This document shows positions 3,799-36,561 of a stretch of 40,490 bases of DNA, one piece after another (positions within the stretch are counted from its first letter, which is position 1; the number at the start of each line of letters is the position of its first letter). A program made the position numbers and the translations under genes. The notes under the pieces were generated by a model, which was not told the DNA's origin, ran no database searches, and was given only the letters and a program-made list of their open reading frames with translations. This stretch comes from an uncultured Gammaproteobacteria bacterium (GTDB lineage: Bacteria; Patescibacteriota; Patescibacteriia; Magasanikbacterales; GWA2-37-8), in contig CAZHTA010000004.1 of NCBI GenBank assembly GCA_964535515.1, positions 27,888 through 68,377 on the forward strand, written 5' to 3'.

Positions 3799-3823
3799 TT
3801 GGTAAATACTTTTATATATCTGT

Positions 3824-4384: not shown

Positions 4385-4392
4385 TAAAAATA

Positions 4393-4401
4393 TGGTATAA
4401 T
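4393..4401 (+). promoter_or_regulatory. Extended -10 (TGgTATAAT) ending 6 nt before the ATG at 4408; implies a leaderless mRNA
   Basis: tatggtataatgtttttATG. No SD is possible in the 6-nt gap. Confidence 0.45.
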
Positions 4402-4407
4402 GTTTTT

Positions 4408-6441
4408 ATGGAAGAAAATATCTTGGAAAATCAAGCCGCACCAGCGGTGATACCAACCGACGCCGATATAAACTATTTCGGGTTGGTTAACTATCGTAAT
4501 CAAAATCGTAAGTTTGGTATTAAGACTGATGATCGCCGTCGACATATGTATGTTGTCGGTAAAACCGGTATGGGGAAAACGACGATTTTGGAGAATATGG
4601 TGTTAAATGACATCTACGCCGGACACGGGGTTGGTTTGGTTGATCCGCACGGTGATTTTGCTGAAAAGATTATTGACTATATCCCAGCTAATCGTATCAA
4701 CGATGTCGTATATTTCAATCCCGCGGATATTGATTTCCCGATTGGTTTTAATATTTTAGAAACTGTAAAGGCGGAGCACAAACATTTGGTGGCTTCTGGT
4801 TTGATGGGGGTATTTAAAAAGATCTGGCCAGATGTGTGGAGTTCACGTATGGAATATATCTTGAACAACACCCTTTTGGCATTGTTAGATTATCCTGGTA
4901 CAACTTTGCTTGGTATTAATCGTTTATTAGCCGATGCTGACTATCGTAAGCGCGTCGTGCATAATTTGAAAGATCCAGTAGTAAAAGCTTTTTGGCAAAA
5001 TGAGTTTGCGGCTTACAATGATAAATATCGCCAAGAAGCGGTAGCGCCAATTCAAAACAAAATTGGTCAGTTTTTGTCTGCTTCGGTCATCCGTAATATC
5101 GTCGCTCAAGTAAAATCACGAATTAACATTCGTGAGATTATGGATAGTAAAAAGATTTTTATCATGAACTTGTCTAAAGGAAGAATTGGTGAGGATAACT
5201 CGCGTCTTTTGGGTGGTATGCTTATCACCAAGATTCAGTTGGCAGCCATGGAACGCGTAGACACTCCAGAGAAGGATCGTAAGGATTTCTTTTTGTACGT
5301 TGATGAGTTTCAGAACTTTGCTACTGAGAGTTTTGCCAACATTTTGTCAGAAGCACGTAAATATCGCTTGGATTTGACCATGGCTCATCAGTATATGGAG
5401 CAACTAGAAGAGGAAGTCTTGGCGGCTGTTATCGGTAACGTAGGGAGTATTATCACTTTTCGGGTTGGTTCTACTGATGCAGAGATTTTGGCTAAGGAGT
5501 TTATTCCAACTTTTATTGAAGAAGACTTGATTAATTTACCAAAGTTTCATATTTACCTTAAACTAATGATCGACGGCATTGCTTCGCGACCATTTTCAGC
5601 TTTGACTTTGCCACCGATTGCTCAGACTACCCATAGTGAAGAAAAAGTAATTAAGGTTTCGCGTGAACGTTATGCTGTACCACGTGAAAATATTGAAGAC
5701 AAGATCGCGCGTTGGAGTGGCATGGTGATTATTCCAGAAGATGAAGCGAGCGAATTAGAAGTAGACGAAGAAGAGGAAATGTTTGAGAAACAGGTAAAGA
5801 AAGAAGAAAAGAAAGTGGTGGAAAAGCCAAAAGAAGAAGTGAGATCTGAGTCTAAGCCTGAACCAGCTGTTGTGGTGGAGGATACCGTAAAGCCAGAAGT
5901 TGTACAGGATTTACCAAAGACAGAACCAGCGCGGAATGTTTCAGAACCAATCGTGCAACCGCAGCCAGTTGTTAGACCGGTACAGTCTAGTTCGGCACCT
6001 CAAGTGAATCGGACATCCAATAATATTTCAGGGGGCAATCGAAATGGTGGTCAGGGTAGTAGCCAGAATTTTCAGTCTTCTGGTAAAAAGAAAAAAAAGA
6101 AACACCATAGTAGTCCAGGTGGTGGCACCGCGGTTTCTTTGGTGGATACAAGTCAAAAAGGTATTTCTCTAAATAGTTTAAGTCAAGAAAGAAACGGGGG
6201 AGGACAACAACGTGATCAGCAACGTTCGCAACAGCAGAGCGTGCAGTCTCCGGTAAAGGCACAAGAAGAAAGGAGAGAGGTTCCTCAAGTTCCAGTTGTT
6301 CAAAAACCACTTGGACCAGAGACGATCGGCTTGTTGCCAAAGGAGCAACATCAGAATCCGCCGGTTGGAGTTAAATCTCAATCACCCCATCAGCCAGTAA
6401 CGATTTTGCCTGGTCAGGTTAACAAGGTAGAAGAGAATTAA
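4408..6441 (+). CDS. P-loop NTPase of the TraD/TraG/VirD4 (type IV coupling protein-like) family with a roughly 230-aa low-complexity C-terminal tail
   Basis: Walker A is VVGKTGMGKTT and the Walker B-like motif is FFLYVDEFQNF, followed by LTMAHQYMEQL. No N-terminal TM segments. The tail is rich in E/K/P/Q/S/G and includes KKKKKKHH. Confidence 0.6.
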   Translation: MEENILENQAAPAVIPTDADINYFGLVNYRNQNRKFGIKTDDRRRHMYVVGKTGMGKTTILENMVLNDIYAGHGVGLVDPHGDFAEKIIDYIPANRINDVVYFNPADIDFPIGFNILETVKAEHKHLVASGLMGVFKKIWPDVWSSRMEYILNNTLLALLDYPGTTLLGINRLLADADYRKRVVHNLKDPVVKAFWQNEFAAYNDKYRQEAVAPIQNKIGQFLSASVIRNIVAQVKSRINIREIMDSKKIFIMNLSKGRIGEDNSRLLGGMLITKIQLAAMERVDTPEKDRKDFFLYVDEFQNFATESFANILSEARKYRLDLTMAHQYMEQLEEEVLAAVIGNVGSIITFRVGSTDAEILAKEFIPTFIEEDLINLPKFHIYLKLMIDGIASRPFSALTLPPIAQTTHSEEKVIKVSRERYAVPRENIEDKIARWSGMVIIPEDEASELEVDEEEEMFEKQVKKEEKKVVEKPKEEVRSESKPEPAVVVEDTVKPEVVQDLPKTEPARNVSEPIVQPQPVVRPVQSSSAPQVNRTSNNISGGNRNGGQGSSQNFQSSGKKKKKKHHSSPGGGTAVSLVDTSQKGISLNSLSQERNGGGQQRDQQRSQQQSVQSPVKAQEERREVPQVPVVQKPLGPETIGLLPKEQHQNPPVGVKSQSPHQPVTILPGQVNKVEEN

Positions 6442-6518: not shown

Positions 6519-7973
6519 ATGAAACAAGACTATATCCTCAAACAGCGCAAAAAGAACATGTATATTTTCCCTAATGTTTTTGTGATTGGGCGGGTTTTTA
6601 CGGGCAGTTTGAACAAAATATTGAATGGTAAGAATTTTGGAGAAACAATGTGTATTTACAAGGACGATATGATGTATTGGTATGCTTCGGATAGTATGGT
6701 AAAAGCGGCGGCGCAAGAATTTTTTAAGAAATTAAAAAAGAATTCAAATTTTGTTTCTTCGTCTATTCGTATTTTTTCTAAACGTAGTAATTTTTTTCTG
6801 TCTTGGGTAAAAAAAGTTAGTAAGAGGGATTTATCAAAAATGACCAACAAGGAGCTGGATGTTTTTTGGGATAAGTATTTAGAGCTCTATGAGTCTAGCT
6901 ATATCTATAGTGAAGCATTGGTAATTTGTTTTGAAGAATACCTTTCTGGTCTTTTGTCTTCGTATTTAAAGAAATTAGTAAAAAGTGATACTGAAGCATC
7001 TCGGGTTCAAAATGTTCTTGCTTCGCCTTTGGAAAAATCATTTGTGAAAAGAGAAGAAGATGATTTGTTGAATTTGGCGTTAAAGATTAAAAACGGCAAG
7101 GTGAAGGATGTAGAATTGGCGTTAGAAAAACACGTGGAGAAGTATCAATGGGTGCCGTTTGATTATGGTATGTATATTTGGGATAAAAAATATTTTAAAA
7201 AGATTTTGCAAGGGATGTTAAAAAATGCAGATTTAGAGAATCGGATTGTGGCTAGTAAGAAATATTTGAAGTATTTGTCTTTGGAACAGTTGCGTTTAGA
7301 AAAGGAATTAAAGATTGACAAGCAATACAAAAAATATTTTATGGCGATGCGCCAGACGGGGTATTTGTTAGATTACAAAAAGGAAATTTTTACCCAGATA
7401 CATTTTTATGCAGAGAAGGTATTGGCGGAGACAGGTAAACGTTTGGGTGTAAAAAGAGATCTGGTGCAATATTATTTGCCAGGAGAAATCAAGACTGCCT
7501 TAAAGGAAGGTAAAGTGGTTGGCAAGAAAATATTAGAAGCGAGACAAAAACATTGTTATGTTCGTTGGTTTGATAATAGTATCGAAGCAGTGATAGACAA
7601 GCCGGATAGTTTGTTGGCTAAATTTTTATTAAAAGAAGATCCGACTTCAGCTAAATTTGAGGGTATTATTGCTTCGGCGGGAAAATGTATTGGAAAGGTA
7701 AAGATTTTACATAGTGCGTTAGAAGTAGACAAGGTGAAATTGGGTGATATTTTAGTTGCACCAATGACTAGTCCAGATTATGTTCCGGCGATGCGTTTGG
7801 CTGGGGCAATTATTACTGATGAGGGCGGGGTGATGTGTCACGCGGCGATTGTGTCGCGTGAATTAGGTATCCCGTGTGTGGTTGGTACGAAAAATGCCAC
7901 AAAGTTTTTACATGACGGTGACGAAGTGGAAGTGGATGCTAATCATAATTCGGTGAGGATAATTCGCAGATAG
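6519..7973 (+). CDS. Swivel-domain paralog 1: uncharacterised N-terminal domain + C-terminal PEP-utilizer (phosphohistidine) mobile domain
   Basis: The C-terminus GDILVAPMTSPDYVPAMRLAGAIITDEGGVMCHAAIVSRELGIPCVVGT aligns with the E. coli PpsA His-domain (GGRTCHAAIIARELGIP). The N-terminal part carries KHVEKYQWVPFDYG. Confidence 0.85.
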   Translation: MKQDYILKQRKKNMYIFPNVFVIGRVFTGSLNKILNGKNFGETMCIYKDDMMYWYASDSMVKAAAQEFFKKLKKNSNFVSSSIRIFSKRSNFFLSWVKKVSKRDLSKMTNKELDVFWDKYLELYESSYIYSEALVICFEEYLSGLLSSYLKKLVKSDTEASRVQNVLASPLEKSFVKREEDDLLNLALKIKNGKVKDVELALEKHVEKYQWVPFDYGMYIWDKKYFKKILQGMLKNADLENRIVASKKYLKYLSLEQLRLEKELKIDKQYKKYFMAMRQTGYLLDYKKEIFTQIHFYAEKVLAETGKRLGVKRDLVQYYLPGEIKTALKEGKVVGKKILEARQKHCYVRWFDNSIEAVIDKPDSLLAKFLLKEDPTSAKFEGIIASAGKCIGKVKILHSALEVDKVKLGDILVAPMTSPDYVPAMRLAGAIITDEGGVMCHAAIVSRELGIPCVVGTKNATKFLHDGDEVEVDANHNSVRIIRR

Positions 7974-7974
7974 C

Positions 7975-9411
7975 ATGTTAAATAGCAGCGATTCAAAACA
8001 TATTCGTGAAACTAATTGGTATCGCCAAGGTGGGGCGATTAATTTGTTTTATTGTTTTAGTCCGTTTCAATCTATTCGCGAAACCATTGGTTATGATGGT
8101 TGTATTATGTATCAAGAGGATGCTGTTAATACTGCTTTTTTTGAACGAGACAGAGAGGATAAGTTAGCACTTAAATTTATCCGAGCAAGCGGGGAAGACA
8201 AATATTTGGTGGACAGATGGATAAGCGTTTGGCGTATACGCATATTAAAGTTAAATAAGTTTTTAGATAAAAGTTTTTCTAAACCATTGGAAACGTGGTC
8301 TGATGCGGAGTTGGTTAATTTTTTCCATCGTTATGATCATTTGGCTTTAAGTCATTGGAAGAAGGGTGTTTTGTGTGAATGGACTGACCCTAATGGCTGG
8401 AATATAGTAAAGACGGAGGCTTTAAAATATTGCCCTAATCTTAGTGATGAAGATATTAATCTGTTAACATCACCAGAAAAGTTAACTGTAGTGCAGAAAG
8501 AATTAGTTGATCGGTTGGTTTTAATGAAAAAACAAAAGCAGGGTTTAAGTATTGAGCGCGAGCTTAAGAAACATGTTAGTAAATATTTTTGGATTCGCAA
8601 TAATTGGGCGTTTGTTTATGATTTAAAAGAAAAAGATTTTCAAAAGGTTATTAACAAAGAAATGTTAAAGTTGGAGAAAGTTGAAAGACAAGTGAAAGAA
8701 ATTAATGAATATATACGTGAGATTAAGAAAAAGAAAAAGATTTTAATCAAGAAAAAATCAGTACCACGTAAAGTACAAAATGTTTTTTACTTTTTTACTC
8801 AATTAACCGATTGGCGCGATGAGAGGAAAAAATTTGCTGCTTGTTTGCCAAATCATTATTTATATAAAATATTGAAAGTATTGGCGAAGAGAAATAATAT
8901 TTCTGAGGAGTTGGTTGGTTTATTAATATGGTTTGAAATTAGTGGTTGGAAATTATCTGTAAAAACAATAGATAATTTAAAAAGACGAGGGCAGGGCTGG
9001 ATCTATTATTGTCGTAAAAATAAACAATGCCAACAAGTTTATGGTAGTGAGGCAAAAAAGATTTTTAATGATTTGGTTAAGGCGTTAGATAAAGGTGAAT
9101 TGCGAGGGTTAATAGCAAACAAGGGTGTTGTGATTGGTAAAGCGAAGATTGTGGAAGTACAAGCTGATTTTAGTAAAGTAAAAAAAGGGGATATTATTGT
9201 TGCTAACATGACGCGCCCAGATTATGTACCGATTATGAAATTGGCAGGTGGAATAATTACCAATGAGGGAGGGATTACTTGTCACGCGGCAATTGTTAGT
9301 CGTGAGTTAAATATTCCTTGTATAATTGGGACACAGGTGGCTACGGATGTTTTAAAAGACGGTGATGTTATAGAAGTTGATGCGGATAATGGTGTAATTA
9401 GAAAAAAATAA
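7975..9411 (+). CDS. Swivel-domain paralog 2
   Basis: GDIIVANMTRPDYVPIMKLAGGIITNEGGITCHAAIVSRELNIPCIIGT. N-terminal motif KHVSKYFWIRNNWA. 1-nt gap to the upstream gene. Confidence 0.85.
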   Translation: MLNSSDSKHIRETNWYRQGGAINLFYCFSPFQSIRETIGYDGCIMYQEDAVNTAFFERDREDKLALKFIRASGEDKYLVDRWISVWRIRILKLNKFLDKSFSKPLETWSDAELVNFFHRYDHLALSHWKKGVLCEWTDPNGWNIVKTEALKYCPNLSDEDINLLTSPEKLTVVQKELVDRLVLMKKQKQGLSIERELKKHVSKYFWIRNNWAFVYDLKEKDFQKVINKEMLKLEKVERQVKEINEYIREIKKKKKILIKKKSVPRKVQNVFYFFTQLTDWRDERKKFAACLPNHYLYKILKVLAKRNNISEELVGLLIWFEISGWKLSVKTIDNLKRRGQGWIYYCRKNKQCQQVYGSEAKKIFNDLVKALDKGELRGLIANKGVVIGKAKIVEVQADFSKVKKGDIIVANMTRPDYVPIMKLAGGIITNEGGITCHAAIVSRELNIPCIIGTQVATDVLKDGDVIEVDADNGVIRKK

Positions 9412-9414: not shown

Positions 9415-10890
9415 ATGCAAGATATTAATAGGTTGACTGAGAAAGATTGGTATTTTCAAGGGTTCAATGGTGTCCCAGCTCTTTTGTATGGTCCCGCTTG
9501 GTCTATGGCGCGTGATATGCCAAAATTTTTAGGTTTTGGCTATTCTGTTTGTGTTGAATATTTCACTAAGGATGTTTGTTATTATCTATATTCTTGGGAT
9601 GATTTATATAAAATTCATGATGAATTATTAAAACGTGTTAAACGCGACAAAAATTATTTGCGTTATTTATCAAAATCAGATGAATGTTTATGTAAAGAAG
9701 TGATTAAAGAATATAAAATTTTAGGTGGGAAAGATTGGTGCAGTGCTTCCATAAAAGAATTATTTTCGGGTTGGCGTAAAGCCAATGATTTATATGCGCA
9801 TCTTTTAGGGGTTTCGCATATTGTAGAAGGGTTTAGTTTAACCACAGAAGATCGAATTAGAGCTTTGATTAATGAAGTTTTTCCTAATGATTCCGGAGCT
9901 TTGTCGTTGCTCACTACTCCCAAGACGCATTCTTTTATGTCTATTGAGCACTATGAGTTATGTTTAATAGCTCATGGTGTTAAACGTATTAAATTGGGTA
10001 AGTGTACTGTTGAAAATATTTTGGTTAATAAGGTGATAAATAAAAAAATATGTCTTCATCAGGAGAAATATTATTGGAAATTAAATGGTTATACGTCGGC
10101 TAAGTTTCTAGACGACAAGTATTTTGCCAAAGAAATATGTGGTTTGTTAAACAAGAAAGTTAATTTTGAAAAATTTATTCATGATTTTGAAAATTTGTCC
10201 AAAAGATTAGATGGAAAAAAGAAACTTCTTAAAAAAGTGAAAAATCAAGAATTACTTGATTTATTAAAAATTTCTGATGCGTTGTTTGTGATCCACGATC
10301 GTCGTAAAGAGCATATGACGCAATCAATTACTTATTTGGAATTAATTTTAAGTGAGATTGCTAAGCGATTTAAAATACCTTTATCTGATTTGCACTATAT
10401 TCGTCCGTCAGAGTTAGAAAAGTTACCTAAGATTTGGTCGGAGTTAAAAAAGAGGAAAGAACATAGCATATACATTTTATATCCAGAAGGAGAGATGCCA
10501 GTATTAACTGGTTTAAAAGCAAAAAAATATTTTGAAAAAATTGAAAAGAATAAAAAATTAGATAAGATTTCGGAGATTAAAGGGAATGGTGCGTCGCCAG
10601 GAAAAGTAAGAGGCGTAGTTAAGGTGTGCCGCGGTGAAAAAGAATTAGGTAAAATGAAAGAAGGAGATATTCTCGTGGCGTGTATGACACAGCCTGAATT
10701 TTTACCGGCTTTGAGAAAAGCTAAGGCCGTCATTACTGATGAGGGTGGTTTGACTTGTCATGCTGCGATAGTGGCAAGGGAGTTAGGAATTCCTTGTGTG
10801 ATTGGAACAAAAGTAGCTACTAAAGTTTTAAAAGATGGTGATATGGTAGAAGTTGATGCGGATAATGGTATAATTAGGAGAATAAAATAG
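9415..10890 (+). CDS. Swivel-domain paralog 3
   Basis: GDILVACMTQPEFLPALRKAKAVITDEGGLTCHAAIVARELGIPCVIGT. N-terminal motif HQEKYYWKLNGYT. Confidence 0.85.
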   Translation: MQDINRLTEKDWYFQGFNGVPALLYGPAWSMARDMPKFLGFGYSVCVEYFTKDVCYYLYSWDDLYKIHDELLKRVKRDKNYLRYLSKSDECLCKEVIKEYKILGGKDWCSASIKELFSGWRKANDLYAHLLGVSHIVEGFSLTTEDRIRALINEVFPNDSGALSLLTTPKTHSFMSIEHYELCLIAHGVKRIKLGKCTVENILVNKVINKKICLHQEKYYWKLNGYTSAKFLDDKYFAKEICGLLNKKVNFEKFIHDFENLSKRLDGKKKLLKKVKNQELLDLLKISDALFVIHDRRKEHMTQSITYLELILSEIAKRFKIPLSDLHYIRPSELEKLPKIWSELKKRKEHSIYILYPEGEMPVLTGLKAKKYFEKIEKNKKLDKISEIKGNGASPGKVRGVVKVCRGEKELGKMKEGDILVACMTQPEFLPALRKAKAVITDEGGLTCHAAIVARELGIPCVIGTKVATKVLKDGDMVEVDADNGIIRRIK

Positions 10891-10960: not shown

Positions 10961-11452
10961 CTAGGCCAGTCGCGTCGCGGTACCGTCGCCGAGGTGGAGC
11001 TCGTACACGGCGCTGCTCGCAGCCTCGAGCTTGAGGCTCTCGAGCACCGGACGTCCGGCCACGAGGACGACGTCCGGGCTGCCCTCGGCGAGGATCAGCA
11101 TGCCGTACGTTTCCCGCAGGTGCATGAGCGTGGCTTCGCGGGACGGCATTCGGAACCGGTCCAACGTCGTCTGCGCGTTGCAGGCGAGCGCGATGTTCCA
11201 CCCTCCGTTGCCGTTGGGGACGCCCGAGCTGGGGTCACCCAGCATGGGATCGTACCACTCGATCTCCTGGAAGATGTCCAGCGCCTCGGCCGTGTCGATG
11301 TGACGCCGGGCGGTCCCGCAGAAGACTCGACGCTTGTCGGGGAGGGGCAGGTGCGGTACGAGCCGTTCGATCTCGCTTCTTCCTTTGCTCGTGAGACCGG
11401 GGTCCGCACCGGGACCCTTCGAACCGTGGGTGATCAATAGGACTCGCGCCAT
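10961..11452 (-). CDS. SixA/PGAM-like histidine-phosphatase-fold protein (163 aa) with degenerate catalytic motifs; high GC3
   Basis: MARVLLITHGSKGPGADPGLTSKGRSEIERL...RRVFCGTARRHIDTAEAL follows the RHG...LTxxGRxQ...SPxxRAxxTA pattern. It has THG in place of RHG and VLVAGRPV in place of the distal SH motif. AGGAGAA lies 6 nt upstream of the ATG at 11452. The 198-aa track ORF is an upstream extension. Confidence 0.6.
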   Translation of the reverse strand: MARVLLITHGSKGPGADPGLTSKGRSEIERLVPHLPLPDKRRVFCGTARRHIDTAEALDIFQEIEWYDPMLGDPSSGVPNGNGGWNIALACNAQTTLDRFRMPSREATLMHLRETYGMLILAEGSPDVVLVAGRPVLESLKLEAASSAVYELHLGDGTATRLA

Positions 11453-11473
11453 CTCTCGTTCTCCTATGGTTGT

Positions 11474-11488
11474 GCGACACGCTGTCGC
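11474..11488. promoter_or_regulatory. Inverted repeat GCGACA-CGC-TGTCGC in the 5' region of the island gene (operator or hairpin candidate)
   Basis: Perfect 6-bp arms with a 3-nt spacer, about 20 nt upstream of the SD on the minus strand. Confidence 0.3.
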
Positions 11489-11605
11489 TTGGTCCCAAAT
11501 AAACGTGCAGTTTGTTTCAGATAGTGCTCGGATTTGGTTAAATCCAGGCAAAATCATGGTACCAAACGTTTCAGTATAGTATATTTTCGCTGTTTTGTCA
11601 ATATT

Positions 11606-13087
11606 ATGTACAAATCACCTCAATTTAAATCAAATAAACTAGAACTTACGGTTAGTCGTCCGTATGTTCCTTTGTGTGCTAACTATTTTTTCCAAAGCTA
11701 CAGTAATCCAGAATATTTTAAGAAGTTTTATAAAATTAACTTTTTTACTCGTTTATTAGCAATTAATGCGGATTTTTATTATGGCCTAGAAGCAAAAGAT
11801 TTTGGCTATGTTCTTTTTGGACAAGCGGCAAAGTATGGTAGTCATAGTAAAATTAAAAAGAAAAATCTTAAGGGTATTTTGCACATTTTTGATCGGACCT
11901 ATAAATTTGGTGATTCGTTATTGGAATTTACTTTGCAAGTTAAGAAAACAGATTTTTCTGAATATTCAAAGAAGCAATTATTAGAGGTGTTTGGAAAATT
12001 TTCGAAAGATTATGTTGTTTTTTGTACTGCTTTATTGGGTATGAATATGCAGTATGTTGTCGAAGATGGTTTGCGTGAGTTTCTACGAAGTGATAAAAAC
12101 GCAGAAGAGGAGCTTGCGATTTTGACTTTTCCTGATAAACAAAATGTTCTTGTTCAAGAACTAATGGACTTATTGCGTTTACGAATTAAATTAGAAAAAG
12201 TTGGTGTTAAGAATTTGGAAAAATGTAAGACCAAGGAGCTTGGCTTACTAAAGAAGCATGTTGATAAGTACGGTTGGATCAATGCTCGTGGTGCCATTAA
12301 TGAAGGATGGACGGTAAAAGAGGTTTTTGATCGGGCGATGGCAGAAAAGAATTGTGCTAAACGTTTGGTTGAGATAGTTAAGAATCAAAAAGAGCATCAA
12401 AAACAAGTTCGAGATATATTTAAAACAAAAAAACCTAATGCGGAAATTAGGGATTTAATAAAAATCGCCAAAGAGCTGGTATATTTTCGCACCTACCGTA
12501 CAGATTATCTTAATTGGATGTTTTTTAATATTCGTCCTTTATTAAATGCGTTGGCAGGTAAGATGGGTATTAGTTTTGAGGATATTATATATTATCTACC
12601 AAAAGAAATCATGACTAAGAAAAAAGTGTCTGAAAAAGAGGTTGTTCGTCGCAAGGAAGGTTACGCGATATTGTTAGCTAAACCTTATGAGGTATTATTC
12701 TCCTCTGATCCTAAGAAAATATTGGAATGGAAAAAGAAACATACTGAGGTATTAGGTGGCAATGTTACGGAAGTTAAGGGTATGTCTGCATACAAAGGTA
12801 TTGTTCGTGGTAAGGCTGTGTTGGTATTGAAAAAGGCTGATATGGTAAAGGTTAAGTCGGGGGATGTTTTAATCACTTTTATGACTACGCCAGATATGGT
12901 ATCGGTTATGCAGAAAGCAATAGCGTTTGTTACTGATGAGGGTGGTATTACATGCCATGCGGCGATTGTAGCACGGGAGATGAAGAGACCGTGTGTAACA
13001 GGGACCAAAATTGCTACTAAGGTTTTTAAAGATGGCGATGAAGTAGAAGTGGATGCGAATACTGGTGTAGTGAAAATTATTAAATAA
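11606..13087 (+). CDS. Swivel-domain paralog 4 (ATG 11606 preferred over the TTG 11534 of the track)
   Basis: GDVLITFMTTPDMVSVMQKAIAFVTDEGGITCHAAIVAREMKRPCVTGT. N-terminal motif KHVDKYGWINARGA. The 5' extension of the track ORF runs into island/intergenic sequence. Confidence 0.85.
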   Translation: MYKSPQFKSNKLELTVSRPYVPLCANYFFQSYSNPEYFKKFYKINFFTRLLAINADFYYGLEAKDFGYVLFGQAAKYGSHSKIKKKNLKGILHIFDRTYKFGDSLLEFTLQVKKTDFSEYSKKQLLEVFGKFSKDYVVFCTALLGMNMQYVVEDGLREFLRSDKNAEEELAILTFPDKQNVLVQELMDLLRLRIKLEKVGVKNLEKCKTKELGLLKKHVDKYGWINARGAINEGWTVKEVFDRAMAEKNCAKRLVEIVKNQKEHQKQVRDIFKTKKPNAEIRDLIKIAKELVYFRTYRTDYLNWMFFNIRPLLNALAGKMGISFEDIIYYLPKEIMTKKKVSEKEVVRRKEGYAILLAKPYEVLFSSDPKKILEWKKKHTEVLGGNVTEVKGMSAYKGIVRGKAVLVLKKADMVKVKSGDVLITFMTTPDMVSVMQKAIAFVTDEGGITCHAAIVAREMKRPCVTGTKIATKVFKDGDEVEVDANTGVVKIIK

Positions 13088-13117: not shown

Positions 13118-14200
13118 ATGGAAAGAGGACCAAGTTTAAGGCCAGAGGATATGCTAGTTGGCAATGATGGGGTGGATCAGAAAGCGCGAGGTGTAATTGA
13201 ATCACGTGATAGCGCCGTAGCTCATAATATTGAGCGTGGGGAAGGCTTATCATCTTCGCGTGTTGTTTTGGAGTTTATGCGTCATGGTAAAAAAGAAAAA
13301 GCGCCAGGCAAAGATGATCGTGATATACGCATTGTTCCGGAAGCGCGTGTGGCAGCAACGGAAAAAGGTAAAAAATTAGGAGCGCAAGCTGAGGTGTCGG
13401 TTGTTTATGCTAGTCCGCGTAACCGTACTCAGGAATCTGCTGGCCGAGTTGCTTTGGGTAATCAATCAGAAATTACTGCGGATATGAGCTTAGAGGATAT
13501 TATGGTTAAAACAATGGAGCATAATGCTATTTTAATGCCTGATCAGTTAGAACGTTTGCGCGAGCTGTTGTCTCATCCAATGGAAGAATTAAATGCTGAA
13601 GAAAAGAAGGAGCTAAAACTTTTGTCGAGTAAAGGTAAAAAAATCATGGTTGATGAACGTTTGGATTTTACTGATGAAACAGAGGAGGGTCTAAAAGCTT
13701 TTATGGCTGGTCGTTATTTAGATCATGCTGTAAAGGATAGTGATCAGTTGGCAATTGCAAAGCATGATACTAAATTATCTACCTATACTCGTTCGGCTGG
13801 TAAGATCGCGGAGATTGTTTCTAAATATATTCAGGTGGGTAAAAATTTTAACAAAAGAGTAAGTGTTGATCCAGAGAAATATAAAAAATTCGGTAATCAA
13901 TTAGAAAGATATTTTGGTTCACACCAAGGTGTTGTAGAATGTTTTTTGTTGAAAGCAATCGAGAAAATAAAAGGTGTAAAAGAGCGTGATGAGATTTTGG
14001 CTTTGATGCCAGCAGGTTTTAAAGAGTTACAAGGTGTAAGGATTGGCATTGAGAACAATGGCAAAGGAGAACAGGTGATTGTTTTAGATGCCGAAGTTGA
14101 AGGAAGAAAGATTAATTTAGAATTAACCCCAGAGATTTTAATGGGTATGGTTAGTGATAGAGATGTGCTGGATGAACAATGTAAGAGTAGTGTGGAGTAA
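13118..14200 (+). CDS. Histidine phosphatase superfamily (PGAM-like) protein with a large internal insertion
   Basis: LEFMRHGKK (RHG), VVYASPRNRTQESA and the distal YFGSHQGVVE (SH motif). About 150 extra residues lie between the two half-sites. Native low GC. Confidence 0.7.
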   Translation: MERGPSLRPEDMLVGNDGVDQKARGVIESRDSAVAHNIERGEGLSSSRVVLEFMRHGKKEKAPGKDDRDIRIVPEARVAATEKGKKLGAQAEVSVVYASPRNRTQESAGRVALGNQSEITADMSLEDIMVKTMEHNAILMPDQLERLRELLSHPMEELNAEEKKELKLLSSKGKKIMVDERLDFTDETEEGLKAFMAGRYLDHAVKDSDQLAIAKHDTKLSTYTRSAGKIAEIVSKYIQVGKNFNKRVSVDPEKYKKFGNQLERYFGSHQGVVECFLLKAIEKIKGVKERDEILALMPAGFKELQGVRIGIENNGKGEQVIVLDAEVEGRKINLELTPEILMGMVSDRDVLDEQCKSSVE

Positions 14201-14210: not shown

Positions 14211-15281
14211 ATGTCTATCGTTCCTGATAAATTTTTAAAAGGAGAGTGTTGGCTGAAAGATTGGGCGGGTCAGTGGGATCTTTTTATTTGTTTTTATTCA
14301 GGAGAAGATTATACCACCTTACTTAAAAAGTGGTTGGGTATTAATTTTGATAAATGTCTTTTTATTTATCACGATGGGTTTGTGGAGTGTTATTTAAATA
14401 AAAGATGTTTAGATATTTTGGGTAGAGAGATTAACGCGAGGGTTAAAGAGGATGTTTTGTGGATTGATAGGAATTGTAAAGATCTTAAAAAGAATACACA
14501 AATTTTCCTAAAATATTTTGCTGAGCATAAAAACGATTTGGTTGCGGAAGAGACATTGAAGAAGTTTTTGCAGTTGGTTAGCAATTGTTTTGCTGCGTAT
14601 ATTTCTAATAAATTAGCATTTGATTATTTGTCAGCAGATATATTAAAGAAAAAATGGAATGTGATGGAATCGGCACGTGTATACTCAGAATCGGTTTATA
14701 CGGCGTGTATAGAGTTTGTTCACAATTGGGGTAAACAAATGGCGAAAAAAGTTAAGATACCAAAGGATCTCTTTCTTTGTTGTTCGTTAAATGAAATTGA
14801 AACTTATTATCGATCGGGTAGATTACCAAGTGTTAGCGAGTTAAAGCGACGGTATTCGTTTAATGTGATACTTTCACAGAATGGTCAGAGTTTTTTATTG
14901 ACTGGCTCAGAGGCTAAGGCTGTTGAGAAAAAGATTATTAGTTCATTTGGCGACAGTAAAACCATTAAAGGCACCTGTGCCTATCCGGGGAAAGTAACGG
15001 GGCGGGTTAGAATTGTTTTTGATCCTAAAAAGATAAAAGATTTTAAAGATGGGGATATCTTGGTAACACCGATGACGCGACCGGAGTATCTTTCTCTAGT
15101 TAAAAAATCCGCTGGTTTTATTACTGATGCTGGCGGTATGCTTTCTCACGCCGCTATTACAGCGCGCGAGTTAAAGAAGCCGTGCGTGGTAGGTACCCAA
15201 GTGGCTACGCGTTTGTTAAAAAATGGAGATGAGGTGGAAGTGGATGCCAACAAAGGGATAGTTAATGTGATTAAAAGATAA
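14211..15281 (+). CDS. Swivel-domain paralog 5 (short, 356 aa; ATG 14211 preferred)
   Basis: GDILVTPMTRPEYLSLVKKSAGFITDAGGMLSHAAITARELKKPCVVGT. Confidence 0.85.
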   Translation: MSIVPDKFLKGECWLKDWAGQWDLFICFYSGEDYTTLLKKWLGINFDKCLFIYHDGFVECYLNKRCLDILGREINARVKEDVLWIDRNCKDLKKNTQIFLKYFAEHKNDLVAEETLKKFLQLVSNCFAAYISNKLAFDYLSADILKKKWNVMESARVYSESVYTACIEFVHNWGKQMAKKVKIPKDLFLCCSLNEIETYYRSGRLPSVSELKRRYSFNVILSQNGQSFLLTGSEAKAVEKKIISSFGDSKTIKGTCAYPGKVTGRVRIVFDPKKIKDFKDGDILVTPMTRPEYLSLVKKSAGFITDAGGMLSHAAITARELKKPCVVGTQVATRLLKNGDEVEVDANKGIVNVIKR

Positions 15282-15288: not shown

Positions 15289-16839
15289 ATGAAGGTGCTA
15301 AAAACTTTTCCTTTGGCTTTGACCAAAAAAACTGCTAGTCAGTTTAATAAGGCGTTTCATGCCAAGTTATTTACTTTGTTTGCTTCTTCGATGAGTGAAC
15401 TAATGCAGTTGGCTAAGGATTTTCCTGTGCATTATAAACATTGTTTGTGTTTTATTAAAGATGATTTAGGCCAGTGGTTTTTGGGCGCAGATAGCATCGA
15501 AAGAGTTAGGCGGTATATCATAAAAAAAGCTGATGAGGATTTTTCTCAGATAAATAAATATTATTTACGTTGGCAGAAAGACTGGGGTAAGTTTTTAATA
15601 TTAAACAGAAAATTAATTAGTTCAGATTTTAGTTCTTTGACTGACAAGCGGTTGTATAAAGTTTTTGATGAGTTTTATGATCTATATTTAAAAGTAGGTG
15701 GTGTGGCATATATTAGTGATGCCTTTATGTCCTCTGGGGAAAAAGATTGGCTGCAAGAGGTTATAAACCAAGAATTAAAACGCATTTATAAAGATATTGA
15801 AAAAGTAAAAAGGGTGGCGGCGGATTTGATTTCGCCAGTTCATCTTTCTTTTGTTTTGGAAGAAGAACTTGAATTATTAAAACTAGCTCCGGCGTTTATT
15901 AATCTTACTGGTAAATTGGTGGGTTTTAATAAGTTGTCCGCTAAACAACTAGCGCAGCTGGAACGTCATGCTGACAAATATTATTGGATGAATAATAACT
16001 ACTATAACGTAGAATTTTACGATGCATTTTCAGTATATACACATCTGGTCAATCTTTTAGATGGTTTGCAACAAGAAAAACGTAGCCTTAGTGATTTTTT
16101 GGCGGAGAGACAGCGCGAATTAAAGGAAAATAAAACGAGGCGTGAGGGGTTGATTAGTGATATTAAGCTACCAAAAAAGATTAAGAGCTTAATTCGGGTA
16201 GCTAATTTGTTTAGCAAGTGGAAAGACGTTCGGAAAAGTGGTGTGTATCGTGGCATGGCAATTTTTGATAAATTTTTGGGCGAGATAGCAATGCGTACTG
16301 GTTATACAAAAAAGGAAATTACTTTTTTAGTTTTTCCGGAGTTCAAGGATTTATTGTTAAATAGAAAAGATTTTCGGTTGGTTATAAAAGATCGTCAAAA
16401 GCAAATATTTTTTGTGGTGCGTCCGCACGACTATCTTTTGGTTAGCGGTCAAAAGGCGGATAAATATTTTGCTTGTTTGTCCGAAGGACTCAATGCTGAG
16501 ATGAAAGAATTCAAAGGAGCAGTGGCCTCCAAAGGAATCGCGCGCGGGGTGGTGCGGATGATAAGGAAAACAGAAGAGATGAAAGACTTTAAAAAAGGTG
16601 AAATTTTAGTTACCAACAATACTACACCAGAGTTTGTTCCAATCATGAAAAAGGCCGCAGCGATCATTACTGAACAAGGTGGTATAACCTCACATGCTGC
16701 TGTAGTTTCGCGTGAATTGCGTAAGCCGTGTATTATTGGTGTTAAAGGTATTACAACCATTTTAAAAACAGGGGTAGAGGTTGAAGTAGATGCTAATCAT
16801 GGTATAATTAAGATTATTAATAAAAGTTTAAAGAAATAA
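15289..16839 (+). CDS. Swivel-domain paralog 6
   Basis: GEILVTNNTTPEFVPIMKKAAAIITEQGGITSHAAVVSRELRKPCIIGV. N-terminal motif RHADKYYWMNNNYY. Confidence 0.85.
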   Translation: MKVLKTFPLALTKKTASQFNKAFHAKLFTLFASSMSELMQLAKDFPVHYKHCLCFIKDDLGQWFLGADSIERVRRYIIKKADEDFSQINKYYLRWQKDWGKFLILNRKLISSDFSSLTDKRLYKVFDEFYDLYLKVGGVAYISDAFMSSGEKDWLQEVINQELKRIYKDIEKVKRVAADLISPVHLSFVLEEELELLKLAPAFINLTGKLVGFNKLSAKQLAQLERHADKYYWMNNNYYNVEFYDAFSVYTHLVNLLDGLQQEKRSLSDFLAERQRELKENKTRREGLISDIKLPKKIKSLIRVANLFSKWKDVRKSGVYRGMAIFDKFLGEIAMRTGYTKKEITFLVFPEFKDLLLNRKDFRLVIKDRQKQIFFVVRPHDYLLVSGQKADKYFACLSEGLNAEMKEFKGAVASKGIARGVVRMIRKTEEMKDFKKGEILVTNNTTPEFVPIMKKAAAIITEQGGITSHAAVVSRELRKPCIIGVKGITTILKTGVEVEVDANHGIIKIINKSLKK

Positions 16840-16840: not shown

Positions 16841-17827
16841 ATGCCAAAAGTTTCTCATATTAAGTTTTTTAAGAATATCTCTAAAAGTGATGTTGATATT
16901 GCTGGTGGTAAGGGTGCGTCTTTAGGTGAGATGACACAAGCCAAGATTCCAGTACCAAATGGTTTTGTGGTTTTAGCCGCAGCCTTTGATCGTTTTTTAG
17001 AAGAGACACAATTAAAAGAGGAAATTGTGGCACGGCTAAAGGAAGTTAACCCAGAAGATACTAATTCGGTTGATCGTATTAGTGCGGTTATTCGTGATGC
17101 GATTCATGATCGGTCAATGCCTAAAGATTTGCAGAAAGAAATTTTAGGAGCATTTACTAAGTTAGATGCTAAATTTGTGGCTGTACGTTCATCGGCTACA
17201 GCAGAGGACTCATCTGTTGCTAGCTGGGCAGGGGAGCTGGAGAGTTATTTAAATACGAGTAAAAAAGATTTGATTGAACGGGTGCGTCGTTGTTGGTCGT
17301 CGTTGTTTACTCCGCGTGCTATTTTTTATCGTCATGAAAAAGGGTTAATTGACCATTATGTCTCAGTAGCGGTAGTAGTACAAAAAATGGTGCAGTCAGA
17401 AATTTCTGGCATTGCTTTTACTGTTCATCCAGTAACGGAAGATTATGACCAGATGATTATTGAAGCGGGGTATGGTTTGGGTGAAGCGATTGTCTCTGGA
17501 CAAATTACACCTGATAGCTATGTGATTAGCAAGGGTAGTATGGAGATTATGGATACTTATGTTAGTTCACAAGCTCGTCAGTTAATTCGTAAGAAATCTG
17601 CTAAGAGCAAAGGGGATGAAGAAAACACTTCAAATGAGTGGGTAAATTTAGGTAAAAAAGGTGAAAAACAAAAGGTCGACAACAAAACGGTCTTGGCCCT
17701 GGCCAAAGTATTTAAACGGATTGAGGACCATTACAAGTTTCCGTGTGATATCGAATGGGCTATGGAAAAGAAAAAAATATATATTACCCAAAGTCGTCCG
17801 ATTACTACTTTAAAGAAGAAAAAGTAG
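16841..17827 (+). CDS. Stand-alone PpsA/PPDK N-terminal ATP-grasp (nucleotide-binding) domain protein
   Basis: Collinear with E. coli PpsA residues about 1-345: GGKGASLGEM, IPVPNGFVV, VAVRSSATAEDS..SWAGE, AVVVQKMV, GIAFTVHP, EAGYGLGEAIVSG and DIEWAMEKKKIYITQSRPIT. It ends there, with no His or TIM-barrel domain. 1-nt gap to paralog 6. Confidence 0.9.
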   Translation: MPKVSHIKFFKNISKSDVDIAGGKGASLGEMTQAKIPVPNGFVVLAAAFDRFLEETQLKEEIVARLKEVNPEDTNSVDRISAVIRDAIHDRSMPKDLQKEILGAFTKLDAKFVAVRSSATAEDSSVASWAGELESYLNTSKKDLIERVRRCWSSLFTPRAIFYRHEKGLIDHYVSVAVVVQKMVQSEISGIAFTVHPVTEDYDQMIIEAGYGLGEAIVSGQITPDSYVISKGSMEIMDTYVSSQARQLIRKKSAKSKGDEENTSNEWVNLGKKGEKQKVDNKTVLALAKVFKRIEDHYKFPCDIEWAMEKKKIYITQSRPITTLKKKK

Positions 17828-28803: not shown

Positions 28804-28829
28804 GCTGTTATATATTTTCAAAAGAAAAT

Positions 28830-28853
28830 CCTCCGGAAACGGAGGCTTTTTTT
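28830..28853 (+). terminator. Intrinsic terminator of the ribosomal-protein operon
   Basis: CCTCCG-GAAA-CGGAGG-C-TTTTTTT. Confidence 0.9.
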
Positions 28854-28874: not shown

Positions 28875-28897
28875 TTGCGCTAAAATACAGGGGAAAT

Positions 28898-29893: not shown

Positions 29894-29898
29894 TTGGT

Positions 29899-30897: not shown

Positions 30898-30899
30898 TT

Positions 30900-33468: not shown

Positions 33469-34830
33469 ATGGAACAGGTGAATATTAAAAGATACAAAGA
33501 TTCTTTTAAGTGGCAGTTTGGTGCTTATCCTTTTTTTACTTCGGTTTTTACTAAATGCGCTGATTTGAAAATTAAAAAGAAACATCATCTTTGTTTTAAT
33601 GAATATATTAGTAATTTTGAAAATGATTCAGTAACAGCGTTTATTCCATGGGAAGTTTTTGAAACACCTGGTAGGAAGATTATTAAAAAAATACTAGCAG
33701 GGGACAAGTATTATTATAACGAAATAAAAAGAACACATAGTGCAGTTAAAAAAGCTATTGCAGCATGTTTGTTGGCGCGGTCTAAAAATGTTAATGAATT
33801 GGGTAGGTGGTGGAGATTAACTCAGGATGCGCTATCGGATGTTAGTCGTGTATTATATTCATTTGATTTTACTTTTGATTTATTTTTAAATGAATTAAGA
33901 GCGAAGGATCAGGATTTGTTTGTGGTGTTGTTAGAGAATATAAAAACAAAAGAAAAATCTTTTCTTGAGGAAGCCTCGGCTAAGTTGTTAAAATTAAAAT
34001 CAGAAAGCAGTGATTTTAAAAAGGTCTATATTAAATTTGTTAAAGAGTTTGGGTGGTTTCAAAATAGTTATAGAGGAGTTTTTAAATTCGATGAGACTTG
34101 GTTGAAACAGTATTTAAAAAATATTTTGCAGCCAAATAAAAAGGACAAAGCAAAGGCGCCGGGCGTTGTTCCGTCTAAATACAAGTTATTAGTTAAGTTG
34201 GCGAAAGAAACGATAGTGTTTAGAGATGACAAGAAAAAATTATTACTAGTCGCAGCAGATGTGATGGATAGTTGGCTAAGGAGAGTTTGCAAAGAACACG
34301 GTTGGTCTTTTGAAGCAATGCGTTGGTTAACAGTAGATGAGATATTGGATGTAATAGAAAATGGTAATAAAAAGAATTTGGTGTTGGCAGAAAAATATTA
34401 CAAAGCCAAGCGACGCATTGGTGTTATGGTCAGTACAGGTTATTTAGATATTAGTAAAAAAGATTGGGACAAAATATATTTGTTGTACTTTACTTCTAAG
34501 AGTGGTTTGGTAAAAGGATTGGCAGCTAACAAAGGTGTCTATAGAGGAACGGTGCGAGTAATTTTAGATCCAGTGAAGGATGCAAAAAAGTTTTATCCAG
34601 GAGATGTTTTAGTCGCCTCGATGACTCGTCCGGAGTATATTAGTCTAATGAGTAAGGCGGGTGCTTTTGTGACTGATGAAGGTGGAATATCTTGTCATGC
34701 TGCTATTGTGGCTAGAGAAATGGGGAAGCCGTGTATTATTGGCACCAGAAATGCTACTAAGATGTTAAAGGATGGTGATTTTGTGGAGGTGGATGCTAAT
34801 ATTGGAATTATTAAAGTCGTTAAAAATTAA
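33469..34830 (+). CDS. Swivel-domain paralog 7
   Basis: GDVLVASMTRPEYISLMSKAGAFVTDEGGISCHAAIVAREMGKPCIIGT. N-terminal motif FVKEFGWFQNSYRG. Confidence 0.85.
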   Translation: MEQVNIKRYKDSFKWQFGAYPFFTSVFTKCADLKIKKKHHLCFNEYISNFENDSVTAFIPWEVFETPGRKIIKKILAGDKYYYNEIKRTHSAVKKAIAACLLARSKNVNELGRWWRLTQDALSDVSRVLYSFDFTFDLFLNELRAKDQDLFVVLLENIKTKEKSFLEEASAKLLKLKSESSDFKKVYIKFVKEFGWFQNSYRGVFKFDETWLKQYLKNILQPNKKDKAKAPGVVPSKYKLLVKLAKETIVFRDDKKKLLLVAADVMDSWLRRVCKEHGWSFEAMRWLTVDEILDVIENGNKKNLVLAEKYYKAKRRIGVMVSTGYLDISKKDWDKIYLLYFTSKSGLVKGLAANKGVYRGTVRVILDPVKDAKKFYPGDVLVASMTRPEYISLMSKAGAFVTDEGGISCHAAIVAREMGKPCIIGTRNATKMLKDGDFVEVDANIGIIKVVKN

Positions 34831-34843
34831 TTTACGATTGTAA

Positions 34844-35461
34844 ATGATTATGAATAAGTCTTTTATCTTTGATTGGTCTGGGACGCTAAGTGACAATTTC
34901 AACTGCTTTTGTAAAGTGTGTGATTTGATGTTTCCGGAATTAGGGCGAGAAAAAATTACTCCTGAAGAAATTAGGAAGGAGTTTACTTTACCGTATATGT
35001 CTTTTTGGAATAAATATTTTCCGGAATTATCCCAAGAAAAACAATGTGGAATGTATGTAAAATATATTCATCAGGTTGGTAATCCGAATCTTTATCCGGG
35101 TGTAAAAGAAGTAATTACAGCATTGCATGGCGGTGGTCATAAGATATTTATTGCAAGTTCCGATCCAGAATCAAAGATAACAGAAGAAATTGAAGCTTCA
35201 GGTTTAAAGGATTTTTTAAGTGGGTATTATTTTGAATTACAAGATAAGACTGAAAAGATTATGGAGCTGGTTAATAATACGCCTTTAGATATTAACAGTA
35301 CTTACTATATTGGTGATACTTTTGGTGATGTTGAGATGGGTAAAAAAGCGGGTGTTAAAACAGTTGGTATTTCTTGGGGGTTTCAGAGTCGTGAGGGTTT
35401 GGCTCTGAGTAAACCGGATTTTTTAATTGATGATATTTTAGAGATTAAAAATATTATATAA
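34844..35461 (+). CDS. HAD-superfamily hydrolase-fold protein with atypical motif I (DWSGT)
   Basis: Motif I is FIFDWSGTL, with Ser at Asp+2. Also IASSD (motif II-like) and YIGDTFGDVEMGKKAGV (motif IV). Confidence 0.75.
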   Translation: MIMNKSFIFDWSGTLSDNFNCFCKVCDLMFPELGREKITPEEIRKEFTLPYMSFWNKYFPELSQEKQCGMYVKYIHQVGNPNLYPGVKEVITALHGGGHKIFIASSDPESKITEEIEASGLKDFLSGYYFELQDKTEKIMELVNNTPLDINSTYYIGDTFGDVEMGKKAGVKTVGISWGFQSREGLALSKPDFLIDDILEIKNII

Positions 35462-35466
35462 ATTTT

Positions 35467-36561
35467 GTGCGTTCAGTATTGAATACAATTAAAAAATTTG
35501 ATTTAGAAGTGGCCACTAAAAGACCTCTACCTTTGTTTACCTTGAGTTGTATAGGGAAAACCTATGTGGATGTATTAAAAAAGAAATATTTTAAGTGTAA
35601 TTATGAGGCTGTAGCTGGTTGGGGTGATAAAAATGGTTTTGTATCTTTACTTAATGAAGAGGCGGTGGTGGATACAATGGCAAATAAGTTAAAAAAAGAA
35701 AAAGATATAAAAAAGAAGTTTGTGGTACCTCTACAAACCAATTTTGTAAAGTTTAAGAAAGAATTTAATGTATTGTTGTCTAATTTGGGAAGAAAGAATG
35801 CGTTGTTAAGTTTAAAACTTTTGTCTAAGTATTATATTGACTATCTCGTGATCTTAGGTAGCTTGAATTGTCTTTGGCGATATATTGGTGATAACGCCGT
35901 AACAAAGTGTAACAAAAAAGACATTGAATATTTTGCCAAAGCCAGGGGAAATGTTGCAGAAATATATCCGCAGATGGAAGGGGCTCTTTCTTTGTTGTGT
36001 AACAAAATTGGTGAGCAGCAAAAATTTGACGGCGATTTGTTGCGATATTTTACTCGCGCAGAGTTAGATAATTTTTTAGACAAAAAGGAATTGTTAAATT
36101 TGGAAAAGCAACAAAAGTTAAAGAAGAGGAAAGTTGGATATTTTTATATTTACACTAAAAATACTGAAGAAGTTGTAACTGAGGACAACGTTTTAATAAA
36201 AAAGATCAAACAGTTTGCACTTAAAAATAGCCAGCCCAAGTCAGGATTAAAAGGTACAGTTGTTTATCTAGGCAAGGTAGAAGCAAAGGTGTTTAATTTT
36301 GATCAAAATTTTAAGAAAGCACCTGCTGGTAAATTTATTTTGGTAACACACATGACTCATCCTAAAGATTTAACGTTGATTAAAAAATCACTAGGGATAA
36401 TTACTGATGAAGGGGGAGTGTTGTGTCATGCGGCGATTATGGCGCGTGAACTCAAGAAGCCGTGTATAATTGGTACAAAGGTGGCTACGCAATTATTAAA
36501 AACCGGTATGAGTGTTGAATTAGATTGTTACAAAGGAACTATTAAAATAATTAAAAAATAA
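35467..36561 (+). CDS. Swivel-domain paralog 8 (GTG start; short, 364 aa)
   Basis: GKFILVTHMTHPKDLTLIKKSLGIITDEGGVLCHAAIMARELKKPCIIGT. Confidence 0.8.
   Translation: MRSVLNTIKKFDLEVATKRPLPLFTLSCIGKTYVDVLKKKYFKCNYEAVAGWGDKNGFVSLLNEEAVVDTMANKLKKEKDIKKKFVVPLQTNFVKFKKEFNVLLSNLGRKNALLSLKLLSKYYIDYLVILGSLNCLWRYIGDNAVTKCNKKDIEYFAKARGNVAEIYPQMEGALSLLCNKIGEQQKFDGDLLRYFTRAELDNFLDKKELLNLEKQQKLKKRKVGYFYIYTKNTEEVVTEDNVLIKKIKQFALKNSQPKSGLKGTVVYLGKVEAKVFNFDQNFKKAPAGKFILVTHMTHPKDLTLIKKSLGIITDEGGVLCHAAIMARELKKPCIIGTKVATQLLKTGMSVELDCYKGTIKIIKK

Follow-up and report, generated by a model that had tools for sequence, protein, structure and literature searches.

A capped histidine phosphatase family, found almost only in Patescibacteria, is encoded in conserved association with arrays of dikinase modules

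The locus described here raises the question of why a histidine phosphatase gene should lie within a row of swivel-domain genes, and on what its product acts. The gene, designated HP (its uncharacterised capped His_Phos_1 subfamily is referred to as the HP family), was analysed in a window of 40,490 nucleotides, which is the whole stretch of DNA under study; the coordinates of all features are given in Table 1. A sequence-only reading had placed HP between swivel paralogs 4 and 5, with gaps of 30 nt upstream (the previous stop is at 13087) and 10 nt downstream (the next ATG is at 14211), and had regarded its composition as native. The analysis reproduced these observations, the GC content of 39.3% and the GC3 of 29% being similar to those of the adjoining genes. 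The three motif strings listed in that reading were likewise located in the protein, i.e. FMRHGKK at residues 53–59, ASPRNRTQESA at 98–108, and GSHQGVVE at 267–274. It is possible that translation starts instead at Met12 (13151).

Table 1. Features of the HP gene and of the dikinase-type genes in the window
Feature	Coordinates	Strand	Comment
HP	13118..14200	+	360 aa; capped His_Phos_1 subfamily member, almost only Patescibacteria
HP N-terminal 45 residues	13118..13252	+	Unconserved, predicted disordered, absent from homologues; pLDDT <50 at residues 1–41
R55-H56-G57 codons (RHG motif, nucleophilic His56)	13280..13288	+	R55/H56 kept in 132–133 of 134 representatives
R103 codon (second phosphate-pocket Arg, SPRxR motif)	13424..13426	+	Kept in 133/134
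Helical cap, residues ~112–258, between half-sites	13451..13891	+	Model secondary structure; near-invariant S208-D209, D217, A227, A231
Charged helical insert, residues ~136–168, inside cap	13523..13621	+	Lineage-specific; pLDDT 74–85
R264–H269 codons (ERYxGSH: third Arg, second catalytic His)	13907..13924	+	R264 and H269 each 132/134
C-terminal three-strand and long-helix subdomain, residues 301–357	14018..14188	+	Family-specific; G306 99% conserved
Swivel paralog 1	6519..7973	+	Substrate-binding-like N-domain and PEP-utilizers His domain; PF00391 E=1.2e-26
Swivel paralog 2	7975..9411	+	PF00391 E=7.6e-26
Swivel paralog 3	9415..10890	+	Modelled; resembles rifampin-binding and swivel domains of RPH
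Swivel paralog 4	11606..13087	+	First ATG; ORF open from TTG 11534; PF00391; NCBIfam match to RPH C-terminal 250 aa
Swivel paralog 5	14211..15281	+	Short form, ~356 aa; 10 nt downstream of HP; PF00391
Swivel paralog 6	15289..16839	+	PF00391
Stand-alone ATP-grasp (PPDK_N)	16841..17827	+	PF01326 E=1.1e-95; NCBIfam matches to N-termini of PEP synthase and RPH
Second mini-cluster	33469..36561	+	Swivel 33469–34830, HAD_2 hydrolase 34844–35461, swivel 35467–36561; inside glycan-biosynthesis locus

Judged from their sequences, the neighbours of HP are modules of two-component small-molecule dikinases of the HpeHI/CreHI/PpsAB/RPH type. In HpeHI, CreHI, and PpsAB, the ATP-grasp protein is separate from the protein carrying the binding and swivel domains (PMC12167813), and the window encodes the corresponding parts, a stand-alone PPDK_N subunit and separate subunits with an RPH-like binding domain and a His swivel domain. 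Six such modules belong to the HP array and two are found elsewhere in the window, and each of them has a C-terminal PEP-utilizers domain with the catalytic His. The ATP-grasp gene is present in the window as a sole copy, and its product is presumed to be the ATP-binding partner common to all modules. The swivel domains of the paralogs are 50% identical, with an invariant GG..H.A motif, as against approximately 18% on average for their N-domains. Profile homology extends beyond the swivel domain, reaching ~130–250 residues further upstream and into the part of RPH/PigC/RedH that binds the substrate, and a window paralog could be aligned with RPH over 301 residues. The system shares the ATP-grasp, the substrate-binding domain, and the C-terminal His swivel with RPH, PigC/RedH, and PpsAB, and differs from them in its separate genes, its array organization, and its hypervariable binding domains. 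The partnership of ATP-grasp and module was confirmed by two fusion proteins from other loci, one joining the ATP-grasp with a module (L011) and the other, of 1875 aa, joining it with four modules and followed after 32 nt by an HP-family gene (L012).

Some other features of the region were also inspected. A high-GC island is found at 10.9–11.6 kb of the window; since an Rfam search over the whole window gave no RNA family, the island is not a known structured RNA, and a search with the high-GC 163-aa ORF found no homologues. A reading of the locus as a defence system was rejected, as PADLOC gave no match to HP, the paralogs, or the ATP-grasp gene. The PADLOC matches were confined to the upstream TrwB-like ATPase (HerA/mad8-like).

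The sequence-only reading had proposed that HP is a dedicated partner of the swivel paralogs, a proposal against which orthologues lying away from swivel genes would speak. We surveyed 18 HP loci, one genome per GTDB species, with neighbours annotated by HMM; 14 of them were labelled Patescibacteria, two only "bacterium", and two came from probably mislabelled MAGs. A swivel gene was located directly beside HP in 16 of the 18 loci, often with overlapping junctions or junctions of <20 nt. In one further locus (L013), HP abuts the ATP-grasp gene and the swivel genes are 1.9 kb off, and in a single locus (L018) HP has no swivel neighbour. When the contigs of three distant homologues (35–40% identity) were inspected, all three genes were inside arrays. 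With protein identities of 31–41%, the adjacency holds in no fewer than eight named candidate phyla of Patescibacteria and persists among differing surrounding genes. The orthologues are thus not generally remote from swivel genes, and this conserved neighbourhood supports the proposal, so that the HP family is very likely the dedicated phosphatase of dikinase arrays. Arrays without HP also exist: on the three contigs reached via homologues of paralog 3 (one taken as Patescibacteria by gene content alone, two DPANN-type archaeal), no HP-family member was present within 10 kb. HP is therefore an accessory of a subset of arrays.

A word-indexed search gave 49 relatives of HP with E values from 1e-107 to 1e-36, nearly all of them 292–315 aa long; the few named ones were all entered as "histidine phosphatase family protein" from Patescibacteria. 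An exhaustive search of 1.84 billion cluster representatives with the HP-family HMM yielded 235 matches at E ≤ 1e-30 and 460 at E ≤ 1e-3. In size the family is small, and its boundary is sharp. HP itself matched Pfam His_Phos_1 (PF00300) above the gathering score (26 bits versus 21.7; E=8.4e-6), the match being limited to residues 53–136, i.e. positions 3–88 of 194 and thus the N-terminal half of the profile, and a PDB sequence-profile search matched the N-terminal 70 core residues and nothing more. His_Phos_1 was matched in 25 of 26 relatives, and His_Phos_2 (PF00328) in none of 26 family members at E ≤ 1.

Conservation was assessed in 134 HP-family representatives with pairwise identities of <50%. 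The residues R55, H56, R103, R264, H269, S208, D209, L182, and G306 were ~99–100% conserved (D209 99%), and E274 was conserved in 94%. Such strong conservation of the nucleophile and the phosphate pocket indicates strong selection and makes an inactive pseudo-enzyme unlikely, and HP is thus probably enzymatically active. The earlier claim of a complete catalytic set was upheld for these two parts, but it is doubtful for the acid. In branch 1, the proton donor is a Glu after β-strand 3 (LxE motif; E82 in the Aquifex phosphatase HFP, Glu in PhoE), whereas motif alignment places a conserved Phe, F184, at this position of HP. The family motif is D-x-R-L182-x-F184, and among 26 aligned sequences at least 90% have Phe two places beyond its invariant Leu. 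If this placement is correct, another residue must supply the acid. Histidine phosphatase families are known to vary in their proton donor (PMC12051542), and the alternative acid in HP is probably D209 of the cap or E274.

The AlphaFold model of HP (pLDDT 86.3, pTM 0.81) is confident except at residues 1–41. It contains the α/β/α sandwich core, with core strands at residues 47–55, 94–98, 176–178, and 261–268, the first of which leads into the RHG nucleophile (F-M-R55-H56-G57). The cap is all-helical and comprises ~147 residues, and the C-terminal unit consists of three strands and a long helix. In the sequence-only reading, a charged helical insertion of ~150 aa between the half-sites accounted for the length of ~360 aa, but an insertion of this size proved to be too large a claim. 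The distance from R58 to H149 in HFP is 91 residues (PMC12051542), compared with 166 residues from R103 to H269 of HP, so that the excess is ~75 aa in HP and ~40 aa in typical family members, the length of which is ~290–315 aa. Residues ~136–168 were found only in HP among 26 aligned sequences, and this stretch of ~33 residues is private to the genome; only five of these columns are occupied in the HP-family alignment. The length of 360 aa is further due to the C-terminal unit and to the first 45 aa, which are unconserved. The insert had been put forward as a candidate specificity or docking module; the charged stretch noticed in that reading is absent from other family members. In the portion of the cap that all members share, conservation equals that of the catalytic core (34% mean identity). 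A Foldseek search with the model gave TM-scores of at most 0.36, and the cap therefore has no close solved counterpart from which specificity could be read.

HP resembles the branch-1 enzymes (PF00300: PhoE, CobC, Aquifex HFP, RosC, GpgP, dPGM) in its RHG nucleophile, its SPxxR-like second Arg, the second His after a β-strand, and the α/β core fold. It differs from them in that the N-terminal half alone matches Pfam and PDB profiles, the cap is approximately twice as long (40–75 residues more), S208-D209, R264, E274, and G306 are additional near-invariant residues, a C-terminal β/helix subdomain is added, and the family is Patescibacteria-confined and linked to dikinase arrays. With branch 2 (PF00328; acid phosphatases, phytases, MINPP), HP has in common a large α-helical domain inserted over the active site and a residue, K59, at the position of the second Arg of the RHGxRxP motif. 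In contrast with branch 2, the HP motif is RHGKKEK, with Lys for Arg and no Pro, the HD motif is lacking (the residue after H269 is Q or variable), and the protein is cytoplasmic, with no evident signal peptide.

The fold, the conserved catalytic residues, the synteny, and the character of the adjoining genes are established by the results above. As to the enzymatic activity of HP, the identity of its acid, and its substrate class, we infer the following scheme. With a probability of about 45%, HP hydrolyses a small phospho-ester made by the dikinase modules, or a derivative one further step on, and we favour this reading over the removal of phosphate from the swivel histidine. The many HpeH/RPH-like modules would all have their conserved His charged by the single ATP-grasp protein (16841–17827), and the charged modules, each with a divergent substrate-binding domain and a near-identical swivel domain, would phosphorylate small molecules. 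The phosphate would then serve as a temporary handle; the Hpe pathway offers a parallel, with HpeHI as its kinase and HpeD as the phosphatase that acts later. In HP, His56 would accept the phosphoryl group, which R55, R103, R264, and H269 would hold, with the non-canonical acid probably being D209 or E274 and the conserved helical cap forming the substrate pocket.

Several observations are in favour of hydrolysis of a small ester by HP. The majority of the branch-1 enzymes characterised so far have small-molecule substrates. The HP cap is large and includes near-invariant residues, and insertions set specificity in histidine phosphatases, the protein phosphatase SixA being a capless core (PMC12051542). 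HpeD provides a precedent for a product phosphatase encoded beside a split ATP-grasp and binding/swivel dikinase: this HAD enzyme takes off the dikinase-installed phosphate after an intermediate step (PMC9618137, PMC12167813), namely carboxylation (PMC9618137). HpeD is, however, HAD/NagD-like and unrelated to HP in fold, and its operon combines a single kinase pair with a carboxylase that intervenes, in contrast with the 6–8 modules, the one ATP-grasp, and the lack of an obvious modifying enzyme in the HP system. Fusions with amidohydrolases (Peptidase_M20, FGase) occur in two HP-family members, an arrangement consistent with a small ester and ill-suited to a protein substrate, although each fusion comes from a single short contig. 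In the glycan locus of the window, the place corresponding to that of HP, between the two swivel paralogs, is taken by a HAD_2 hydrolase. The swivel gene behind this HAD has its closest relative in another locus (L016), where that relative follows HP, and a HAD–swivel fusion occurs in Woesearchaeota (P0303). Since the HAD–swivel adjacency recurs in only one of three related loci (in L028, not in L029 or L030), the HAD argument is modest.

Other observations count against a small ester and at the same time for the main alternative, in which HP acts in a SixA-like manner and strips the swivel His of any module by His-to-His56 phosphoryl transfer followed by hydrolysis. No modifying enzyme is encoded between kinase and phosphatase in the array, so that plain phosphorylation and dephosphorylation of a product would be a futile cycle. 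An array, which may have as many as six divergent modules with the swivel domain alone common to all, has one HP, and a single phosphatase with a cap as conserved as its core fits one shared protein target better than diverse products. The swivel orthogroups obtained by BLAST clustering were many and small and none universally adjoined HP; one fixed orthogroup beside HP was not found, and in iterated HMM searches the N-domains all fell into a single superfamily. The apparent lack of the canonical Glu is also in line with a phospho-His substrate. The cap would then be a docking surface for the swivel domain, and the whole array would be throttled or reset; combined with the reverse half-reaction of the modules, the array could even act as a set of substrate-specific phosphatases.

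Precedents for such a reset exist. SixA removes phosphate from NPr, a carrier of the PTS (PMC7948535, PMC6282199), and from the catalytic phospho-His of Ndk (PMC12934123), and HpeH alone exchanges phosphate between substrates via its His (PMC12167813). SixA, with ArcB HPt, NPr, and Ndk as targets, belongs to the same superfamily as HP and uses the same catalytic His chemistry, and it serves phospho-His carriers of the PTS, the Enzyme I of which has a homologous swivel domain, making it a conceptual model for the reset. Against this, SixA is a minimal core of ~160 aa, whereas HP-family proteins have 300–360 aa including the cap and the C-terminal subdomain, and HP gave no NCBIfam SixA match. 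The preference of branch 1 for small molecules and the amidohydrolase fusions also weigh against a phospho-His target. Moreover, removing phospho-His would waste ATP (to AMP + 2 Pi) in energy-poor organisms, and many arrays as well as the characterised HpeHI, CreHI, and PpsAB function without such a protein. We therefore consider a reset of the swivel His the less probable of these two readings and rather doubtful on the whole. It is still less probable, though worth stating, that dikinase swivel domains have in HP their first dedicated phosphohistidine phosphatase, and that a modular phosphorelay discharges by hydrolysis through this one shared outlet. The His of a module would in that case be loaded either from ATP by the shared ATP-grasp or from the module's own phospho-metabolite, a reverse half-reaction that has been demonstrated for HpeH, and HP would drain the phospho-His, so that the array would be a switchable set of substrate-specific kinases or phosphatases scavenging host metabolites or phosphate in ultra-small symbionts.

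Quite unlikely is a third reading, in which HP is a phosphomutase or an integral third component instead of a plain hydrolase. As a dPGM-type mutase, HP would shift the phosphate on the dikinase product, e.g. from sugar-6-P to sugar-1-P for envelope glycan synthesis; as a third component, it would resolve a pyrophosphoryl-His intermediate by removing the terminal phosphate within the dikinase cycle. Either function would escape the futile cycle. Phenylphosphate synthase has a stimulatory third protein. The superfamily includes mutases (PMC12051542), and swivel paralogs are found fused to UDP-GlcNAc 2-epimerase and HAD-IA domains and adjoin glycan-synthesis genes. However, no specific mutase sequence feature supports this reading, arrays without HP exist, and the characterised two-component dikinases need two proteins only (PMC12167813).

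It is very improbable that HP is a regulatory phospho-Thr phosphatase that takes an inhibitory phosphate off the Thr at position −2 relative to the catalytic His (the PPDK/PEPS regulatory site) and thereby reactivates the modules: T-(C/S)-H is found at the catalytic site of five of the eight window paralogs, but three lack that Thr, no DUF299/PSRP-type kinase appeared among the Pfam-scanned genes, which comprise the array and the flank upstream of it (all of the window but ~20 kb), or among the called genes of three homologue contigs, and the known PPDK/PEPS regulator removes the phosphate by phosphorolysis and is not a histidine phosphatase. The notion of an unrelated housekeeping phosphatase that merely shares the operon could draw on the locus without a swivel neighbour and on the arrays without HP, but it has hardly any likelihood given the adjacency retained over at least eight candidate phyla at 31–41% identity and a small family essentially limited to array contexts.

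The literature searched on Patescibacteria/CPR/DPANN, on swivel/PEP-utilising domains, and on histidine phosphatases gave neither a link between histidine phosphatases and swivel-domain arrays nor a description of the arrays in Patescibacteria or DPANN. The novelty thus lies in a structurally distinctive subfamily of a well-known superfamily, present in a new conserved genomic association. As far as can be told from sequence, the HP family pairs a branch-1 core with a branch-2-like helical cap and a putatively relocated acid catalyst. Tiny Patescibacteria (CPR) and DPANN genomes retain rows of 6–10 divergent HpeH/RPH-like modules with a single ATP-grasp, and a phosphatase that has coevolved with the arrays offers an experimental handle, as the substrate of HP would reveal either the products of the arrays or their control. 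If the substrate is the swivel phospho-His, the enzymatic removal of phospho-His, in bacteria so far a matter of SixA, would extend to the dikinase/PEP-utilising family. If it is a small ester, the arrays would follow a logic of "phosphorylate, use, dephosphorylate", by which host-dependent organisms would salvage metabolites or build their envelope glycans.

In L012, one of the loci carrying the capped phosphatase, a giant ORF (1875 aa) was found to unite one PPDK_N ATP-grasp domain with four consecutive binding-plus-swivel modules, and the capped phosphatase follows it directly. A smaller fusion of ATP-grasp and module (667 aa), with an RPH-like domain order, was observed in L011, another such locus. 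Some members of the capped-phosphatase family also carry C-terminal fusions: in two cases, P0066 (encoded on contig L025) and P0077, the fusion partners were Peptidase_M20 and N-formylglutamate amidohydrolase (FGase), and six further members (P0060, P0149, P0153, P0176, P0181, and P0188) had C-terminal extensions of 150–220 aa that gave no Pfam match. The gene next after P0066 is, judged by eye, putatively PTA_PTB-like.

The swivel paralogs form a family of more than 4200 members, and large arrays of 8–10 paralogs without the capped phosphatase were found in L026 and L027 (DPANN-type contigs) and on the contig of P0228, probably a Patescibacteria contig judging by gene content. Interspersed in these arrays were genes for methyltransferase, hexapeptide transferase, PTA_PTB, isochorismatase, LMW phosphatase, Carb_kinase, ATP-grasp_IQCH, and GATase, and some of the paralogs carried a fused UDP-GlcNAc 2-epimerase or HAD domain.

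The array of the window also contains a second, short His_Phos-like gene on the opposite strand, in a sharply delimited island with 63% GC (GC3 77%) between flanks of 34–36%. THG replaces RHG in this gene, and AGRP stands at the expected position of the second His. No homologues were found in a large-database search, and an Rfam scan gave no match for the island. A counterpart with 33% identity in L015 is likewise GC-rich (56% versus 37–40%), and in L003 a more canonical short histidine phosphatase (53% GC versus 43–45%) occupies the equivalent position.

A TrwB/DUF87-type ATPase, for which PADLOC gave weak mad8/HerA-like matches, repeatedly adjoins the arrays in several genomes; in the window and L001, NUDIX and AMMECR1 genes come before it. 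Further downstream, the window holds a glycan/envelope locus with two FemAB genes and others for a Wzx-like flippase, GT4, GT2, Wzy_C, and a formyltransferase; inside this locus, a second mini-array consists of a HAD_2 hydrolase between two swivel paralogs. Motif I of this hydrolase is DWSGT, the second Asp being changed to Ser. The HAD–swivel adjacency recurred in L028, and was absent in L029 and L030.

Nearly all long ORFs at window positions 1–38000 lie on the + strand, and over the same range the GC skew is strongly positive, with the cumulative skew climbing monotonically. Both features are consistent with a segment of the leading strand in a Patescibacteria genome of low GC content (37%).

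Features by locus
Locus	Positions	Strand	Feature
Window	1585–6441		region of the TrwB/DUF87-type ATPase
Window	10961–11557	-	short His_Phos-like gene
Window	28778–40255		glycan/envelope locus
Window	especially 32348–36561		part of this locus that includes the second mini-array
L001	6613–9904		region of the TrwB/DUF87-type ATPase
L003	4279–4959	-	short histidine phosphatase
L005	8000–8896		capped phosphatase
L005	10001–10936		capped phosphatase
L009	4724–5614		capped phosphatase
L011	13936–15939		667-aa fusion
L012	4288–9915		1875-aa fusion
L013	316–1239		capped phosphatase
L015	12371–12970	-	short-gene counterpart
L016	12954–15527		region of the TrwB/DUF87-type ATPase
L025	373–2643		P0066

The capped phosphatase is present in two copies in one Patescibacteria array (L005), with a short swivel paralog between them. 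In two loci, L009 and L013, its orientation is opposite to that of the swivel and ATP-grasp genes flanking it; thus, co-transcription with the array is not universal.
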